A DNA stretch of 31,920 nt. Source: a virus (lineage: Duplodnaviria; Caudoviricetes). How positions within the stretch are numbered: position 1 is the stretch's first letter; the number at the start of each line of letters is the position of its first letter. Location of the stretch: positions 1-31,920 of the IMG/VR virus record IMGVR_UViG_3300006928_000042, one strand, 5' to 3'. The notes under the pieces are model-generated. The model did no database searches, was not told the origin of the DNA, and saw only the letters and a list, made by a program, of their open reading frames with translations. Position numbers and translations under genes: made by a program. This document shows, one piece after another, positions 1,152-28,016 of the stretch.

Positions 1152-1682
1152 TTAATTATTAATTTTATACAATGTGATGGTTCCACCAGTAATTGTAGTA
1201 GAATCTCCTGTGATTACTATTCCATTATGAGCTTCTGCAACTCCATATTGCATAGCCCCTTGTGAGCCATGAGCAGTAGATGAAGTTGAATTAAAAACAT
1301 TATCTTCTATAGTTATGTAACTATATTGGCTTGAATTATTAAAATTAAATAAATAATAAACAAAACTACTACTTTCTCCTGCTGAAGCACCTATTGGACT
1401 GTTAGCAAAATACATTTCTGTTCTACTTGGATATGCGAAATTTTCGAAAGCACCATCTGGTTTTAAAATTAAATTAGCAAAATCATACTGTGCAGCAGTT
1501 TGTGGTTGTGATGCACCGCTAACAACTTTAGTAAATCTAGTATGTAGATAAGCAGTGTCTGTGTTAATAGTAATACCTTTACCTACTAACATATACACAT
1601 GATCAGTTGTAACACCATCCATGATTACTGAAGATACAGCACTTGTTACTGTTGTTGATTTTACTTGTTCTATAGCTTCCAT
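1152..1682 (-). CDS. Tail fibre/receptor-binding beta-sandwich protein (paralogue 3)
   Basis: 176 aa; shares pattern with two upstream ORFs, ending GTITLYKI. Confidence 0.6.
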   Translation of the reverse strand: MEAIEQVKSTTVTSAVSSVIMDGVTTDHVYMLVGKGITINTDTAYLHTRFTKVVSGASQPQTAAQYDFANLILKPDGAFENFAYPSRTEMYFANSPIGASAGESSSFVYYLFNFNNSSQYSYITIEDNVFNSTSSTAHGSQGAMQYGVAEAHNGIVITGDSTTITGGTITLYKINN

Positions 1683-10705: not shown

Positions 10706-11943
10706 TTAACTCTTGAGTTCCACATAGTACCACCTGTTACTCTTTGTCCAGGTTGTCCGAATACTGATTCTAAATCTGCTACTGCTTTGTCTTGATATGT
10801 TTGTGTGCCTAGTTCAGCAGCTATCTCGAATGCAATATCTTCTCTTTCTTTAATATCATTAGTAGCAATAAATCTTGCCCACTCTGATGATGATTCATCA
10901 GGTTCTTGTCCCACTATATTTTTAAATTCGTATCTCCATTGTGGAGCAGCAGTAGAATATTTTTTAACATTAGTACCTTTATATTGTGGATGAGAAGCCA
11001 TAAAAGAATCTTCTAATGATGGTAAGTATGTCTCTGTATACCATAGTGGATTAGCTTCTTTTTCATTAGCTATATTTGTTAAATTTAAATTATCTGATGC
11101 ACCTGGACCAAGTATTGCGTCTATATCAGTAGCTATAGATTGTGTTGCAACAATGACATTTATATCTTCGCCACTAATAGCTGCTTGTACTTCTGGAGGT
11201 AATATACCAGGCAATCTAGGATTTTTAATTTTGTCATATACTAAACTTAAATCTTCATAACCTGGTGTACCATTAACTGAATTAGATACGAGTACATTAA
11301 TTAAATCTGGATCTAAATCTTTGAAACCCGCTAACATCATATCACTTACCACTTTTTCATATTCAGATTGAAAGTTAGCATTATATTGTGCAGGATCTTG
11401 TGCTTTTAATTTTACTGCTTTTCTTTCTGCTGATGTATGGTCTCTATACCAAGTTGTATTCATAAGTTCTGCATCTCTTGGTACTCTACCCTCTTGTGCT
11501 GCCTCAATAGCAACTGCTAAATAATCGTAGTTACCATCTTTATCTGTAGATAATAACCATGGTGCTGTCTTTGCTTCTTCTTTTATTGTCTCTACAAGGT
11601 ACTCATAAGGTGTTGCACCATCAGGTAATTTATCAGCTATATTATATAATTGATTTGTTGTACCAAAATTATAACTACTATTCCACATATCTGTAGTTAT
11701 AAAACCATCAGATTTAACTACTTCTCCGTTTTGTATAATAGTATTAGGAGTTAATGTTTCGTTACCAGGAACTTTTTCTAGTATTTCTAATGGATCTTCT
11801 ATTAAATATTTCCAAGTAAACATACTGCCATCAGGTAACTCAATAAAAGCCATTAGCCAAAAGTTGTTATCTTGTTGTACTACTTCATAATCAGCAGGTA
11901 ATCCTGCTATTAATCTGTTTTGTTCTTTACTTTGTGTTTCCAT
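10702..11943 (-). CDS. Putative internal virion protein
   Basis: 413 aa, acidic; assigned by position only. Confidence 0.5.
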   Translation of the reverse strand: METQSKEQNRLIAGLPADYEVVQQDNNFWLMAFIELPDGSMFTWKYLIEDPLEILEKVPGNETLTPNTIIQNGEVVKSDGFITTDMWNSSYNFGTTNQLYNIADKLPDGATPYEYLVETIKEEAKTAPWLLSTDKDGNYDYLAVAIEAAQEGRVPRDAELMNTTWYRDHTSAERKAVKLKAQDPAQYNANFQSEYEKVVSDMMLAGFKDLDPDLINVLVSNSVNGTPGYEDLSLVYDKIKNPRLPGILPPEVQAAISGEDINVIVATQSIATDIDAILGPGASDNLNLTNIANEKEANPLWYTETYLPSLEDSFMASHPQYKGTNVKKYSTAAPQWRYEFKNIVGQEPDESSSEWARFIATNDIKEREDIAFEIAAELGTQTYQDKAVADLESVFGQPGQRVTGGTMWNSRVK

Positions 11944-14070: not shown

Positions 14071-14864
14071 TATTTACCTTGCTTCATTTGTTCAAATCTG
14101 AATTTATCGTAGCCAATATTTTTAGGTTCATTAGGAAGTAATGTTGTTCCTTTAACAAAATCATTTAATGTTTCTGCAAACTTAGCTGCTTGCTCTTCCA
14201 TACTTTCTTGTACTGGTTTAGCGTATGCAAAATCAAGAATTTTATTTGCAAATTTTGGATTTTCAAAATCTTTTTTTCTCATAAGATTTCCTCCTGTATA
14301 TCTTTCTGCTTGTATTGATTCTGCATCCATCATGAAATCTGAATCTGGTGTAACCATACTAAAGGTTGACCAATTCTCTAAACCATTTGGTCCATCACCC
14401 TCTACATATCCAGATATATAAATAGCTGCAACTGCATTTATAAATGGATTACTTATATTATCTACAAAATCTCTACCATTATCAAATAGTTCTGGAAATA
14501 TTTTTTTAAATCTATCTTCCCAAAAATCATTTATCTGCCACAATCCATAGTCGACAGAGCCATCACTATTTGGTTTACTTACTCTGTTTTGTGAATAACC
14601 TAAACTATAACCACCGTCATGATGTTCAGCTAATGCTACTGCAACTAACTGTTGCATTGCAGATGGATCATCTGTATTTAATACAAACTCTCTTTCATCA
14701 TTAGGATTATATTCAGATGTAGATAAGTTTTTAGATTTTACATAATTGTCTGCAAATACTAAATAAGAATATAATCTTTCAGGTGTGTATTGTTCTTTAT
14801 CTGGTTGATCTGGTGCAAATGATAACCCATTAGCCATTATCAACCCTATTATAAATAATCTCAC
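14070..14864 (-). CDS. Lysozyme-fold peptidoglycan hydrolase, probably virion-associated (start may be ATG 14837)
   Basis: AVALAE catalytic helix, NSDGSVDYGLWQIN hairpin, NPFINAVAA and G...WSTF motifs. Confidence 0.85.
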   Translation of the reverse strand: MRLFIIGLIMANGLSFAPDQPDKEQYTPERLYSYLVFADNYVKSKNLSTSEYNPNDEREFVLNTDDPSAMQQLVAVALAEHHDGGYSLGYSQNRVSKPNSDGSVDYGLWQINDFWEDRFKKIFPELFDNGRDFVDNISNPFINAVAAIYISGYVEGDGPNGLENWSTFSMVTPDSDFMMDAESIQAERYTGGNLMRKKDFENPKFANKILDFAYAKPVQESMEEQAAKFAETLNDFVKGTTLLPNEPKNIGYDKFRFEQMKQGK

Positions 14865-16663
14865 TAACCAATAATATCACTCATCCTGTCAATTGAATAG
14901 GTTAAATATGAAAGATTTCTAGCATCTTCATCTGCTTTAGCTTGTGCTTGTATTTCAGGTTGTAATGTCTGTTCTATACGTTCAGCAGTTCTAACTCCTG
15001 GACTATCAGGCACTTGTAATTTGCTTTCTGGCATCATTCTTCTTCTTACTAAATCTAAATTTCTATCATACTCAACAGCAGCATTTGCATAGTCTTGTTC
15101 TGAATCTTTATAGAAATCCATAAAAGCTGCCATTTCTCCTGTAGTCATATTTGTTCTACCACCTGCTGCACTAATTGCAGTCTGTACTGCTTCTTTAACT
15201 GCTAAAGGTCCTGCTGATGGATAAACTAAAGGATATATAATTGGTCTATTTTTATAATCTTCTATTGCTCCTTGTAAGTATGGTCCTACCTTTTCTAACT
15301 TATAGTTAGCTTCTGTCATAGCTTCTTTCATTGCTGCTCTTGTTTGCAAACCCCATGTACCTGCTTCTGAATAGTAAGCATCTGGTGATAACATTCCTGC
15401 TTGCATTAATTGTAACTGTATAGCTTGTTGTTCATCAGGAGGTAAACTAATCCAATTAATTTTTCCCTCTGCTGGATCTCCAGCAATGTGATCAAATCCT
15501 CTATATAAGTTATCTACACCGTAATCACTTACTGTGAATTGTTCTTTAGTATCTTTTGCAAATCCCTCTACAGTAGGTTCTTGTACTTCTGCTTCTATAT
15601 TTTTAAATATAAAATGATCTGATGGTAAACTTCCAAATACATCTGTATTTCCTATATCTTCAAATAATAATTGTTGTTTATATTGATTAAAACTTTCTGT
15701 TCTTTCTGCTTCAGTTGTTCCTGTTAATTGTATAGGAGGTGTGTTTTGACCTATTAGACTTTCTGCTTGTTCTGCTGATAAAAACTCTTGTTTAAAATCT
15801 TCAAATTCTCCTGTTATTGGATTTATAGTATATGTCATGTAATAAGTATTACCTGTTGCAACATTAGTTGCTACACCAGATTCATCAACATTATCTTTTA
15901 ATGAAACGAATGATCCTGGTTTTGGTTTATAAGTGTTTGCATCTTCTGGTTTAATAAATTCTGGATAGTAATATACTTCAGCATCATTAGCACCAAATAA
16001 TTTAAGTCTTGGTAAAGTATATTGCAATGCTATATTATCTGTTCCACGACTAGAAAATGTTTGTTGGATTGATGGTGAAGTGTAAAATAAAAATCCTGAT
16101 CCACCTTTTGGTTTAGCTATTATTGCTGCTTTACCTGTTTCGTCAACAAATTCATTAACTTGTTCTTTTAAAAAGTTTCTATAAGTTGATGATTCTTCTG
16201 CATTTACAGGACTTACACCAGTAGCTAAATCAACACCACTATTAATTGATTGAACAAAATCTACAGGTAAAGTGTATTTATACCTAGGTCCTGAAAAAGA
16301 ATAACTTTGATATTCGTTTACAAATTCTGCTTCTCCAGGAATAAAATTTTCTAATACTGATAAAGAATCTTCAACAACTTGAACATTGTCAGCATAAAAA
16401 GAATCTAAAGAAGCATTGTTTTCATTGTTATTCATTGCATCATAAACTTCTAAAGTTGTAATTATTTGTGCAATAAATTGAGTATCAGAAATATCTTTAG
16501 TAATTAAACTATTCAAATTTGTAATTAAATTGTCATCTATTCGTGAACTACTTGTTAATTGCTCTATTGAACCAGCAGTAGTTTGTGAACCATAAGGCAT
16601 TTTAATTACACTTCTGTTAGCTAATACTGCTTCTATTAGCGCTTCTTTATATCCATCTTCCAT
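14864..16663 (-). CDS. Putative internal virion protein with possible peptidoglycan-binding helix motif
   Basis: 599 aa; IQLQLMQAGML...GTWGLQTRAAMKEA resembles the PG-binding-1 motif; adjacent to the lysozyme gene. Confidence 0.5.
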   Translation of the reverse strand: MEDGYKEALIEAVLANRSVIKMPYGSQTTAGSIEQLTSSSRIDDNLITNLNSLITKDISDTQFIAQIITTLEVYDAMNNNENNASLDSFYADNVQVVEDSLSVLENFIPGEAEFVNEYQSYSFSGPRYKYTLPVDFVQSINSGVDLATGVSPVNAEESSTYRNFLKEQVNEFVDETGKAAIIAKPKGGSGFLFYTSPSIQQTFSSRGTDNIALQYTLPRLKLFGANDAEVYYYPEFIKPEDANTYKPKPGSFVSLKDNVDESGVATNVATGNTYYMTYTINPITGEFEDFKQEFLSAEQAESLIGQNTPPIQLTGTTEAERTESFNQYKQQLLFEDIGNTDVFGSLPSDHFIFKNIEAEVQEPTVEGFAKDTKEQFTVSDYGVDNLYRGFDHIAGDPAEGKINWISLPPDEQQAIQLQLMQAGMLSPDAYYSEAGTWGLQTRAAMKEAMTEANYKLEKVGPYLQGAIEDYKNRPIIYPLVYPSAGPLAVKEAVQTAISAAGGRTNMTTGEMAAFMDFYKDSEQDYANAAVEYDRNLDLVRRRMMPESKLQVPDSPGVRTAERIEQTLQPEIQAQAKADEDARNLSYLTYSIDRMSDIIG

Positions 16664-25334: not shown

Positions 25335-27257
25335 TTATCTATCCCACATTCTTTCGTCATAAGTTGTCATTTTATAATTGCTATATGATGGATTATAGTC
25401 ATTGTCTACTTCTGATAGTACCAATTTAACGGTCTGGCGTACCCTTTTCATAGGAAACCAACTTGCCATAACTAAGTCTGTTTTACTACTAACCGATTTA
25501 GAATTACTTCCGCTAGCACTACTAAAATAAATTAACTGTTGTCTTAGTGTGTTTACTTTACGTTGTGTTAGCGGACTTGCCCATGGTAAGTTTATTTTCT
25601 GTTGTTCATACATAGGAACCATGGCAGTAACACCGAATACTGGATCCCATTTGTTTTTATATGTTTGATGTCCCTCTATCCTTACACCATTTGCTCCTGC
25701 CCAATTCTTTATTTCTTTATCTTGTCCTATAGCTTTTTGGAATCCGTTTTCTTCTACAATCCAATGTGATAAGAAATATTGTTCATGCCAATCTTTCATA
25801 ACTTTATGTGCTTTAGATATACCACCGCCTAAGTCATTACGTAAATCTACTAACCATAGTTGTCCAGTTTTTTGATTATATGCCCACAATACAGCAGCTT
25901 GATAACCTGTAGATGCTGGATCTAATCCTGCAATCAATGCAGTATGTGGTGGTATGTCTCCTAAGTTCCTGGACCTATCTAAACATCCGTCAATCATTTC
26001 TGCACTAAACAATTCCATACCTGCTGGTACAGCTTTATTTAAATACACCATTTCAAATATAGCTCTACCACCTGTAGTTTCTGCTGATGCTAATTGTTCC
26101 ATTAACCATTTATGAGTACGTTTACCTTTCCATAACATGTGTTCGTCCTGGTCATCTGACTCCTGGTCTAAAGGTATTTCTAAATCGTGCGCACGCTCTA
26201 CTATTGTTTCCCATGCCTCATTGTTCAGCAATGCGTTATACAGGTCATCTGGATGCTGTCTGGAGCCAATTACGACCATTCCTGTGTGTTCTTCTTTTCT
26301 TGACTGCAATGTTGTGGTCCACCAGTTTTTAGTATTTTCTCTAGCACTTGGTTGTACTGTACTACCATGATCTTCAATGTCATCAGATATTATTAAGTCT
26401 GCATCCCTGGACAATATCTTTCCGCCTTTACCTACAGCTACTAATGTAGGACTTTTTATACCAGCTACCGTTCTTGTAGCTACAGTAAATTGACTTGTAC
26501 TCCAAGACTTTCCTGATTTGTTCATAGGTCTAAATCCCTCGTATGATGCAAAGTCTTGTATAAGTTCTTCATTATTTTCTAAATGGTCCAATACAGCACC
26601 TACTGCATTCTTAGCTATATCCTCATTACCTCCAACCCACATTATTCTCATGTTTGGATTTTTACATATCATGTATACGCAGAAGTGTGTTAACAAATCT
26701 GTTTTGCCATGACGTGGCGGAGACAGTACCATAAGTCTCTTTCCATTTTCTATTGCATCTAATATTGCTGCTATCCATCTTTTTTGGAAACCTGGTGTCT
26801 CATACGGTACACCTTGCTCTGTCAAAAAATATTTGTCCCTGAAAGCTACAAAGTCATCTAGCTTGACAGCACTATCCCCCCCATTTTTTTGTAAGGACTC
26901 GTGATTTTCTCTTAGTGCTTCGTCTTTTATCCATGCAGACAATGATCTAGTTACAGTAGCTAATGAGCATCCTAGTATGTCAGCTATCTCTTGTTTAGTC
27001 TTAGTACCATTCAAAAGGTCGTCAAAAAAATTTTTTTTCTCCATAATGGCATAGTAATTACCTCTACGCTTCTGTATATTTGTATCTACCACTTTCTCTA
27101 CGTGGTACGTGTCGGTTGTCTTACTAGCCCTGTATGCTCTCTTTTTGATTCTATTAGCACACTTGTCTGAACAATATTTTCTCCTACCATCTGGTAAAAT
27201 GCGATTGCAGTCGTTAGCTACACAAAACTTGTTTTTCTCTTGTTTTGATTTACTCAT
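25335..27257 (-). CDS. terL: Terminase large subunit with N-terminal Zn-finger and HTH
   Basis: Walker A LSPPRHGKT, Walker B LIISDDIED, IGSRQH coupling motif, RNase H-like nuclease IAGLDPA...DLVMASW. Confidence 0.93.
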   Translation of the reverse strand: MSKSKQEKNKFCVANDCNRILPDGRRKYCSDKCANRIKKRAYRASKTTDTYHVEKVVDTNIQKRRGNYYAIMEKKNFFDDLLNGTKTKQEIADILGCSLATVTRSLSAWIKDEALRENHESLQKNGGDSAVKLDDFVAFRDKYFLTEQGVPYETPGFQKRWIAAILDAIENGKRLMVLSPPRHGKTDLLTHFCVYMICKNPNMRIMWVGGNEDIAKNAVGAVLDHLENNEELIQDFASYEGFRPMNKSGKSWSTSQFTVATRTVAGIKSPTLVAVGKGGKILSRDADLIISDDIEDHGSTVQPSARENTKNWWTTTLQSRKEEHTGMVVIGSRQHPDDLYNALLNNEAWETIVERAHDLEIPLDQESDDQDEHMLWKGKRTHKWLMEQLASAETTGGRAIFEMVYLNKAVPAGMELFSAEMIDGCLDRSRNLGDIPPHTALIAGLDPASTGYQAAVLWAYNQKTGQLWLVDLRNDLGGGISKAHKVMKDWHEQYFLSHWIVEENGFQKAIGQDKEIKNWAGANGVRIEGHQTYKNKWDPVFGVTAMVPMYEQQKINLPWASPLTQRKVNTLRQQLIYFSSASGSNSKSVSSKTDLVMASWFPMKRVRQTVKLVLSEVDNDYNPSYSNYKMTTYDERMWDR

Positions 27258-27264
27258 CTGTTAT

Positions 27265-27273
27265 AGTGTATCA
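27265..27273 (-). promoter_or_regulatory. Extended -10 promoter giving a leaderless terL mRNA
   Basis: GTATGaTACACT-ataacag-ATG; 7-nt spacing, no SD. Confidence 0.5.
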
Positions 27274-27321
27274 TACAAATACTTTGATTTAGATGGTTAA
27301 AGCAACCTAACATGTGTACAA

Positions 27322-27523
27322 GTAAGTGAGATCGAGACTCAGAAAGTTCCGAATCGGTAGTACGATAAACTAGTAAGGCAAACGGAATACTCAAGGCACC
27401 TGACTAAATCCTTGTCAATAGCTCTTTTTTTTATAGCTCGCTACGACTTCAATGGCGGTAGTCCTTACTAGCACTCCTAGTCCTATGTATTTGTCCTGTA
27501 CTAGCAAGAACTGACCTACTTAC
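27322..27523 (-). ncRNA. Rod-like structured RNA candidate upstream of terL
   Basis: Five nested colinear helices with three G.U pairs favouring the minus strand; no credible CDS. Confidence 0.5.
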
Positions 27524-27556: not shown

Positions 27557-27616
27557 ATACTAGATATAGTGTATATTTCTGTAAATACTACATGTAGTGT
27601 ACACTATATATGGTAT
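27557..27616. promoter_or_regulatory. Three 16-bp NrdR-box-like palindromes (fourth at 27716-27731)
   Basis: ATACTAGATATAGTGT, ATACTACATGTAGTGT, ACACTATATATGGTAT versus consensus acaCwAtATaTwGtgt. Confidence 0.5.
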
Positions 27617-27619
27617 ACT
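27611..27619 (+). promoter_or_regulatory. Extended -10 promoter for the tRNA-like RNA
   Basis: TGgTATACT ends 7 nt before GGGGATG. Confidence 0.6.
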
Positions 27620-27626
27620 GTCTACT

Positions 27627-27718
27627 GGGGATGATTGGTAAGTAAAGCTAACAATCAAATAATAGATTGCCTTTGTACACAGTAGCTTTAAACCTAGGTT
27701 CGACTCCTAGCATCTCCA
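27627..27718 (+). ncRNA. 92-nt tRNA-like RNA resembling the tmRNA tRNA-like domain without an mRNA domain
   Basis: Acceptor GGGGATG/CATCTCC with G3.U70 and discriminator A; T-arm CTAGG-TTCGACT-CCTAG; unpaired GG-containing D-loop; 8-bp TAAAGCTA/TAGCTTTA helix; AAC connector; CCA not encoded. Confidence 0.8.
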
Positions 27719-27867
27719 CTATATATAGTAGGTCTATACGAAATACCTAGTTACCACCTATACTTTTGGTGATTCATATACATTTACGCAAACGCCAGAT
27801 TTAAGTGTGGGGGTTGTTAAATTATGCTCCAGAATTTGTAGGTTTTTGAAAGAGTCCTGAAGCTGAT

Positions 27868-27966: not shown

Positions 27967-27993
27967 AAAAAGAAAGAGGGACCGAAGTCCCTC
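27967..27993 (-). terminator. Rho-independent terminator
   Basis: Minus strand GAGGGAC-TTCG-GTCCCTC-TTTCTTTTT; cUUCGg tetraloop. Confidence 0.9.
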
Positions 27994-28016
27994 CCTCCCT
28001 GCGTACGATACTGGGC

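Follow-up and report, generated by a model that had tools for sequence, protein, structure and literature searches.

A tmRNA derivative reduced to the tRNA-like domain upstream of a phage terL gene, with a predicted second RNA partner

Why phages carry pieces of tmRNA is an open question. RNAs with just a tRNA-like domain (TLD) recur in hundreds of viral contigs, whereas the 2025 tmRNA database holds 9 standard-form genes without a coding sequence (CDS) among 97,179 (Nawrocki et al. 2025, PMC11915505). One such RNA lies in the stretch of DNA analysed here (the window), a phage record of 31,920 bases that CheckV rates as 77% complete; is it an intact molecule under selection, and what might it do for the phage? 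The terminase, portal and major head genes are on the minus strand, and the mini-tmRNA and a predicted second RNA, RNA-A, occupy a plus-strand gap upstream of terL. The terminase large subunit TerL (25335..27257, minus strand; PHROG 38, E 3.4e-69) is a fixed neighbour, oriented away from both RNAs.

A tRNA-like domain conserved beside terL

The mini-tmRNA (27627..27718, plus strand) is recognised from its sequence, from Rfam and from orthologs, and measures 92 nt up to the discriminator A73, read from the sequence at 27718. Its 7-bp acceptor stem (27627-27633/27711-27717) contains G3.U70 and leads into a stemless D-loop (27634..27642) in which the elbow GG (18/19) is separated by 3 nt from the G19-equivalent. 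The 8-bp P2 helix (27643-27650/27683-27690) closes a 32-nt loop (27651-27682) with a 5-bp inner hairpin, which stands in place of the pseudoknots and tag reading frame, neither of which is present between the P2 strands; a 3-nt AAC connector (27691-27693) and the T-arm (27694..27710) complete the molecule. CUA follows A73 directly (27719-27721), and CCA is not encoded. An extended -10 motif read from the sequence (27611..27619, plus strand) ends 7 nt before G1 and is conserved in alignments of the focal and sister clades, and transcription is predicted to start at G1 or within 1-2 nt of it; the motif is absent from the list of a sigma-70 scan that demands a -35. The original prediction, made from the letters of the DNA, had named the acceptor with G3.U70 and A73, the GG-containing D-loop without a stem, the 8-bp helix, the 32-nt loop with its hairpin, the 3-nt connector, the T-arm and the promoter motif, and all of these are present. 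The span then given for the element, 27611..27721, does contain it, but takes in the promoter as well as the RNA.

ARAGORN called neither a tRNA nor a tmRNA over the window, as had been expected for the tRNA. The Rfam tmRNA model RF00023 matches the mini-tmRNA end to end (36.4 bits, E 8.6e-12), covering both ends as anticipated, but below its gathering score of 47 bits, and the model of two-piece permuted tmRNA, RF04321, gives a weak match (21.9 bits, E 0.33). The folding energy is unremarkable against shuffled sequences (z -0.50), and the case for the RNA therefore rests on covariation.

Orthologs were found in the same place and orientation in 67 of 76 regions upstream of related terL genes, so that the equally short syntenic homologues that the original prediction proposed to look for in viral databases do exist. 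They comprise 21 distinct variants of 77-93 nt, with TerL identities of 70-100%. The nine misses consist of six loci with too little flank, L403, which is without the 3' half, and two loci at 52% TerL identity (L453 and L454), one with a short flank and the other, L454, with an N gap at the place of the mini-tmRNA. In L403 a deletion of about 50 nt has removed the 3' T-stem strand and the acceptor strand, and the partner RNA and docking site remain. In a more distant terL group (51-55% identity) no TLD was detected upstream in 23 loci, several of them with short flanks, nor in four whole records.

All 7 acceptor positions and all 5 T-stem positions pair in each of the 21 variants. Two-sided changes are seen at pair 5 of the acceptor and pairs 1-3 of the T-stem; P2 is present throughout (21/21) as a helix of 4-8 bp, the sequence of which differs between lineages and the strands of which enclose 17-33 nt. 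The D-loop/T-loop elbow pair 18:55 covaries, being G/U in 16/21 variants and A/G in 5/21, and 19:56 and 54:58 (G19-C56 and U54.A58) never change in the 21 variants. The inner hairpin is kept in seven of eight close variants and lost in L395, and CCA is encoded in 0/21. Judged from these alignments, the tRNA elbow and the TLD fold of the mini-tmRNA are under selection. The prediction of an intact, selected TLD-only derivative of tmRNA is thus borne out by the covariation among 21 variants and by the presence of both ends; the RNA has neither the D-stem nor the anticodon arm of an ordinary tRNA, and a one-off deletion or attachment-site remnant is at odds with orthologs at 67 of 76 loci in which both ends covary. 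Rfam tmRNA scores of the orthologs range from 29.8 to 52.6 bits and one of them reaches 47. This is the L438 ortholog, which combines a near-canonical D-loop with a score above the Rfam threshold (52.6 bits) and on these grounds indicates that the family derives from tmRNA; the L399 ortholog gives no Rfam tmRNA match.

Two further observations were made on this set of loci. The elbow swap of G18 to A with U55 to G occurs in L399, L400, L404, L406, L416, L430 and L435; such A18/G55 RNAs escape patterns that require the usual T-loop, and no paper on the swap was found in the literature searched. Downstream of the RNA both clades conserve short motifs at 27740-27817, with no evident RNA structure; among them is a run of five G at a distance of about 90 nt, and they are possibly packaging or promoter signals.

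Known relatives and the determinants for alanine and SmpB

The original prediction regarded this RNA as a candidate for an undescribed system. That claim is not supported, since the phage TLD-only form is already in print and is common. Mycobacterium phage DS6A is listed as 'TLD only' by Hudson et al. 2014 (PMC4131195), who add that tmRNA is strongly inhibited by a comparable molecule whether or not it can be charged, perhaps because SmpB is titrated, and Nawrocki et al. 2025 (PMC11915505) report that the DS6A form inhibits endogenous tmRNA in E. coli. The suggestion that the mini-tmRNA sequesters SmpB therefore has a published precedent. We read the DS6A element directly (tmRNA Website tmID 11587; Phage__Mycobacterium.9; JN698994 from 28478). 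Like it, the mini-tmRNA is phage-encoded and contiguous, carries G3.U70 and A73, has no tag frame and does not encode CCA, the same three bases following A73 in both; unlike it, with its UCGAC D-loop end and a P2 closed by a short hairpin, the mini-tmRNA has a shortened D-loop and a largely open 32-nt loop that is complementary to a second RNA.

Pattern searches of viral sequences placed the RNA among a larger set. A search with the acceptor-stem pattern returned at least 119 viral loci, at least 81 of them distinct, and 16 of the distinct sequences are ARAGORN tRNAs (among the matches listed). The canonical-junction pattern occurs in at least 120 viral stretches, with about 230 estimated; the 118 matches listed comprise 88 distinct sequences of 69-82 nt, for which ARAGORN makes 0 calls, and among these G3.U70 is present in 88/88 even with position 70 left free in the pattern. 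A short-D-loop pattern matched 56 viral stretches (28 distinct, two of them called tRNA-Ile) and 43 metagenome stretches, in the terL lineage and also in phages without a TerL match. Further TLD-only RNAs with a short D-loop, 84-98 nt in length and with a long, branched inner region, are found in L457, L461, L471, L475 and L480, where the fetched flanks show no TerL match. The mini-tmRNA as a blastn query against named phages gave short, chance-level matches only, and a canonical copy gave mostly short T-arm matches to full tmRNAs and att-like sites.

The mini-tmRNA shares with the canonical phage TLD-only class its layout of acceptor, T-arm, P2 and connector and its invisibility to ARAGORN. 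It differs in that its lineage is 77-93 nt long and has lost G3.U70 in 3 of 21 variants. Like standard tmRNA (RF00023) it has a TLD with G3.U70 and A73 about a 7-bp acceptor and a stemless D-loop that makes the elbow contact, and unlike it has no pseudoknot ring, resume codon or tag. The absence of a tag frame is shared with the CDS-less mitochondrial (RF02544) and Mallomonadaceae plastid tmRNAs, as described in PMC11915505; those are organellar, the mitochondrial ones usually permuted and with a nucleus-encoded SmpB, whereas the present RNA is viral and no smpB was found in its phage. Two-piece permuted tmRNA (RF04321) also consists of two RNAs held by base pairing, as here if the predicted duplex forms, but its acceptor stem is divided over the two pieces; the present TLD is whole, and the partner has a promoter motif of its own and no tag frame that we could find. 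From its sequence, the mini-tmRNA has the anatomy of the DS6A TLD-only form (a contiguous TLD of less than about 100 nt, without a CDS, in a phage) with a divergent SmpB junction, and it is not a standard tmRNA.

Alanylation is directed by G3.U70 and A73 (PMC3968760, PMC3985003), and according to PMC8363625 E. coli SmpB grips A15, U17, A334 and G19 stacked on C18, and G19C prevents its binding. In our own register the window RNA retains G3.U70, A73 and the equivalents of G19 and A334. Its D-loop has 3 bases between the elbow GG and the G19-equivalent, compared with 4 in canonical tmRNA; C18 is replaced, and the canonical UUCGAC/GGAC junction is missing. Among the orthologs G3.U70 is retained in 18/21 variants (60/67 loci), the G19-equivalent in 16/21 (52/67 loci) and the AAC connector in 16/21, and the window RNA keeps the connector together with the other two. 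Three variants (seven loci) carry G3-C70 and all three are without the G19-equivalent, two of them by a G-to-C change; on a TerL tree (FastTree, with one relevant node weakly supported) at least two changes are needed at 3:70. The original prediction had taken the SmpB surface as intact, which overstates the case: the D-loop and connector motifs are reduced, and close relatives lose G3.U70 and the G19-equivalent. On sequence grounds, SmpB binding by the window RNA is plausible, but less secure than for the canonical class.

No SmpB gene was detected in five records, two of them at least 99% complete, so any SmpB partner would be that of the host. A scan of 185,579 cellular genomes for the window D-loop gave seven matches, all true tmRNAs matched at an offset, and thus no cellular one-piece tmRNA with this D-loop (by the exact pattern, which only one-piece genes of 333-393 nt could match); the mini-tmRNA is therefore probably not a copy of a known host surface. 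Natural variants of the lineage, which carry G3.U70 or G3-C70, retain or lack G19, and have G18/U55 or A18/G55 at the elbow, make it possible to tell alanylation, SmpB binding and elbow mimicry apart. L325 carries an intermediate form (1501-1576, minus strand) with a short D-loop and the canonical GAC/GGAC junction. Near-identical full tmRNAs with the tag ADNYAYAC occur in L312 and L314-L318, which are assemblies labelled as different phyla, possibly through misbinning.

A second structured RNA and its complementarity to the loop

Covariation points to a second structured non-coding RNA, RNA-A, at 27274..27432 (plus strand, ends approximate), between terL and the mini-tmRNA and about 300 nt upstream of the loop of the latter. 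Its core stems lie at 27346-27351/27383-27388, 27353-27356/27363-27366 and 27334-27336/27390-27392, and within the same bounds it begins with a 5' docking region and ends with a 3' hairpin and U-run. An extended -10 at 27259..27267 (plus strand), conserved in alignments, points away from terL and is its predicted promoter; in L454 this motif goes with RNA-A and not with the terL start. In the focal core 6 of 17 pairs show two-sided changes, 95% of cells pair and 0 of 500 shuffles scored as high, for seven sequences and a structure chosen by eye. Viral sequences contain the core at 21 loci, every one of them on a contig that belongs to the terL set. It is conserved down to 52% TerL identity (L453, L454), with invariant single-stranded motifs. 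Two overlapping helices of RNA-A both look conserved, which suggests a switch.

Loci of the sister clade (L399, 1250-1500, minus strand, and others) carry at the same position another, different structured RNA (about 230 nt) that covaries strongly, probably makes a loop-loop contact and has a G-rich 3' block that does not vary. The core of this RNA pairs in 288/288 cells with two-sided changes at 9/18 pairs, and is unrelated to the focal core (no match with a covariance-type model). In 18 cells the plus strand has G.U where the minus strand would have a mismatch, and consensus folding also favours plus. Strand support for the focal core is weaker than that for the sister core, and from the sequence a terL leader on the minus strand is an alternative: transcription from a near-consensus promoter on that strand, at 27552-27524, would pass through RNA-A on its way to terL. 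Neither RNA-A nor the sister-clade RNA has a match in Rfam, and thermodynamic stability gives no signal for RNA-A (z +1.82 on the plus strand, +0.75 on the minus). HDV-like, twister, pistol, RNase P and c-di-GMP motifs did not fit RNA-A by eye, and a tag frame was sought in it and not established. PMC10690425 mentions 10,006 unnamed candidates, and RNA-A or the TLD may be among them.

The loop of the mini-tmRNA is complementary to this neighbour. Its segment 27672..27681 (plus strand) is predicted to form 10 bp, one of them G.U, with the docking site at 27313..27322 (plus strand) in RNA-A, and a second segment, 27653..27659 (plus strand), which overlaps the inner hairpin, has a 7-nt complement at 27283-27289 and is the positional homolog of a 9-12 bp duplex in L395 and the sister clade. 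With an unbroken duplex of at least 9 bp and up to two G.U as the test, the loop matches the first 60 nt of RNA-A in 67/67 loci (18/18 focal, 49/49 sister; 9-12 bp across loci), whereas control windows do so in 7.9% (of 732) and 2.2% (of 1,976) of cases. The match was already known when the target window was set, and only about five independent types of loop are represented among the 67 loci. A loop complement lies upstream throughout this lineage, and one of at least 9 nt in 17/21 here, against 1/57 in the canonical class and 1/25 among other short-D-loop (GGUAAG-type) RNAs. Perfect complements span 7-11 nt for cognate pairs and mostly 4-7 nt across lineages in a cross-matrix. Loop and target change together between lineages, through an indel and two-sided substitutions, and single changes stay plus-strand G.U.

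Measures of energy are less uniform. The duplex energy ranks 0-3 in the sister clade but only 7th-25th of 66-82 windows in the focal clade, where the match includes a 6-bp palindrome in an AT-rich region. Cofolding, which cannot model pairing out of a closed loop, gave the cognate window middling ranks and was not supportive (focal clade, 0-6 of 24-30; sister clade, 3-23 of 22-30). Sequence comparison across lineages shows that the loop retains its complementarity to the 5' part of the RNA upstream of it, and we consider it more likely than not that the two form this pairing in the cell, for whatever purpose. This covarying complementarity to a second RNA is the most unusual feature of the locus and had no place in the original prediction; in the literature searched (mostly at abstract level, with few subscription journals) neither a paired second RNA nor a tmRNA fragment serving as a docking module is described. 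The RNA-RNA contact that it predicts, with a structured RNA that is itself uncharacterised, is precise and testable, and if the pairing is real a fragment of tmRNA has been repurposed as a docking module.

Possible roles and genomic setting

The role that we tentatively favour for the mini-tmRNA is that of an SmpB competitor that is also predicted to dock a second phage RNA. Transcription would begin at or near G1, driven by the RNA's own extended -10; host enzymes would trim the 3' end, add CCA and, in the window genome, alanylate the RNA via G3.U70 and A73. Binding of SmpB and EF-Tu would then let it compete with host tmRNA, with less tagging and degradation of stalled phage proteins, as reported for DS6A. 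The freed loop would have been co-opted as a docking arm for RNA-A, and in some sublineages the scaffold role may persist after the determinants for alanine and SmpB have decayed. A bolder extension, which we hold to be doubtful, is that the two separately transcribed phage RNAs make up a new tmRNA architecture, in which a whole TLD docks an exchangeable structured partner by its loop and, with host SmpB, brings this partner to stalled ribosomes in place of a message domain; with such an architecture a phage could rewrite the fate of stalled proteins.

Next in standing, if unlikely, is an order of importance in which the scaffold comes first. Here the TLD would mainly be a stable handle in the shape of a tRNA, by which RNA-A is bound, protected or switched, or one precursor would fold back onto its 5' end; SmpB and alanine would be incidental, and RNA-A may in that case regulate the late terL operon as an antisense RNA to its possible long leader. 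The duplex is universal (67/67 loci) while G3.U70 (60/67) and the G19-equivalent (52/67) are not, a two-sided T-stem change persists in a G3-C70 lineage, and transcription from 27552-27524 would cross RNA-A towards terL, all of which would suit a scaffold. However, G3.U70 and the AAC connector persist in most lineages and would be needless for a pure scaffold, the RNA-A cores of the two clades are unrelated, and the focal core also occurs in L453 and L454, in which no TLD was found (L454 having its N gap there).

Competition for SmpB with docking remains our preferred reading over three others, each of which we regard as quite improbable. RNA-A might be docked as a separate message domain and supply a resume codon or an immediate stop in trans. 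The docking site is situated where a message domain would branch off from P2, RNA-A contains helices that cross or kiss, and in both types of RNA-A an AUAAACU run, resembling the sequence that precedes resume codons in tmRNA, leads into short frames that have no start codon. Against this, the types have no frame in common; in L388 the register is shifted by a 1-nt insertion, the frame of the focal RNA-A is part of a covarying helix and the short peptides lack a hydrophobic tag end, while the conservation of a stop reflects only a near-invariant block.

Rescue without a tag, in which an Ala-TLD-SmpB complex enters the stalled ribosome, takes over the chain and frees it untagged, has been suggested for CDS-less mitochondrial tmRNA in PMC11915505, and would accord with the alanine identity kept in the window and in 88/88 canonical copies (among the matches listed). 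It is weakened by the loss of G3.U70 in 7/67 loci; no stop codon is supplied, and the DS6A form is reported in the same paper to be inhibitory. We give as little credence to the idea of a decoy that diverts host defence proteins which recognise or cleave the elbow or T-loop of tRNAs. No tertiary feature is kept more strictly than the elbow contact, but there is no anticodon loop, the T-loop sequence is changed in 5/21 variants, the complementarity of the loop goes unexplained, and no defence system was identified in connection with this idea. An ordinary tRNA, an attachment-site remnant, a permuted tmRNA or a decaying ssrA fragment is very improbable, since the weak RF04321 match and the lost 3' half of L403, which speak for it, are outweighed by covariation in 21 variants with two-sided changes in an acceptor of which both strands are present, the missing D-stem and anticodon arm, inconsistent isotypes across relatives under relaxed tRNA scoring, the absence of a tyrosine integrase from five records (PF00589, 0/5), and a downstream G-run that has no D-loop behind it and is mutated in L127 and L136.

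Searches of the 65 ORFs gave no host marker and no Pfam match to a serine recombinase, no WhiB was found in five records (two or more nearly complete), and no TerL relative was found in the cellular genome collection. The best named TerL matches, to two unannotated Caudovirales records and to Streptomyces phages at 26-28%, are too weak for host assignment. Contigs from four RNA runs lie over or beside the mini-tmRNA (unstranded, from runs picked by this locus), and on a 20-kb control the same runs covered scattered coding regions too; their shares were too small to name a habitat.

Some smaller features of these genomes can be added. TerL (25335-27257) has an N-terminal extension with a zinc finger (PF11706) and a helix-turn-helix, possibly a fused DNA-binding part resembling a small subunit. 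The minus strand has a hexamer resembling a -10 at 27255-27270, 7 nt ahead of the start codon of terL; it overlaps the plus-strand promoter motif, and terL may be translated from a leaderless mRNA. A UUCG-loop hairpin with a U-run (27968-28000, minus strand) follows the early genes, its stem kept through changes in relatives, and is likely a terminator that the terminator scan overlooked. In the sister-clade phage L521 the early genes include those for a small SET-domain protein and an ArdA-like antirestriction protein (10869-11183, 14457-15035).
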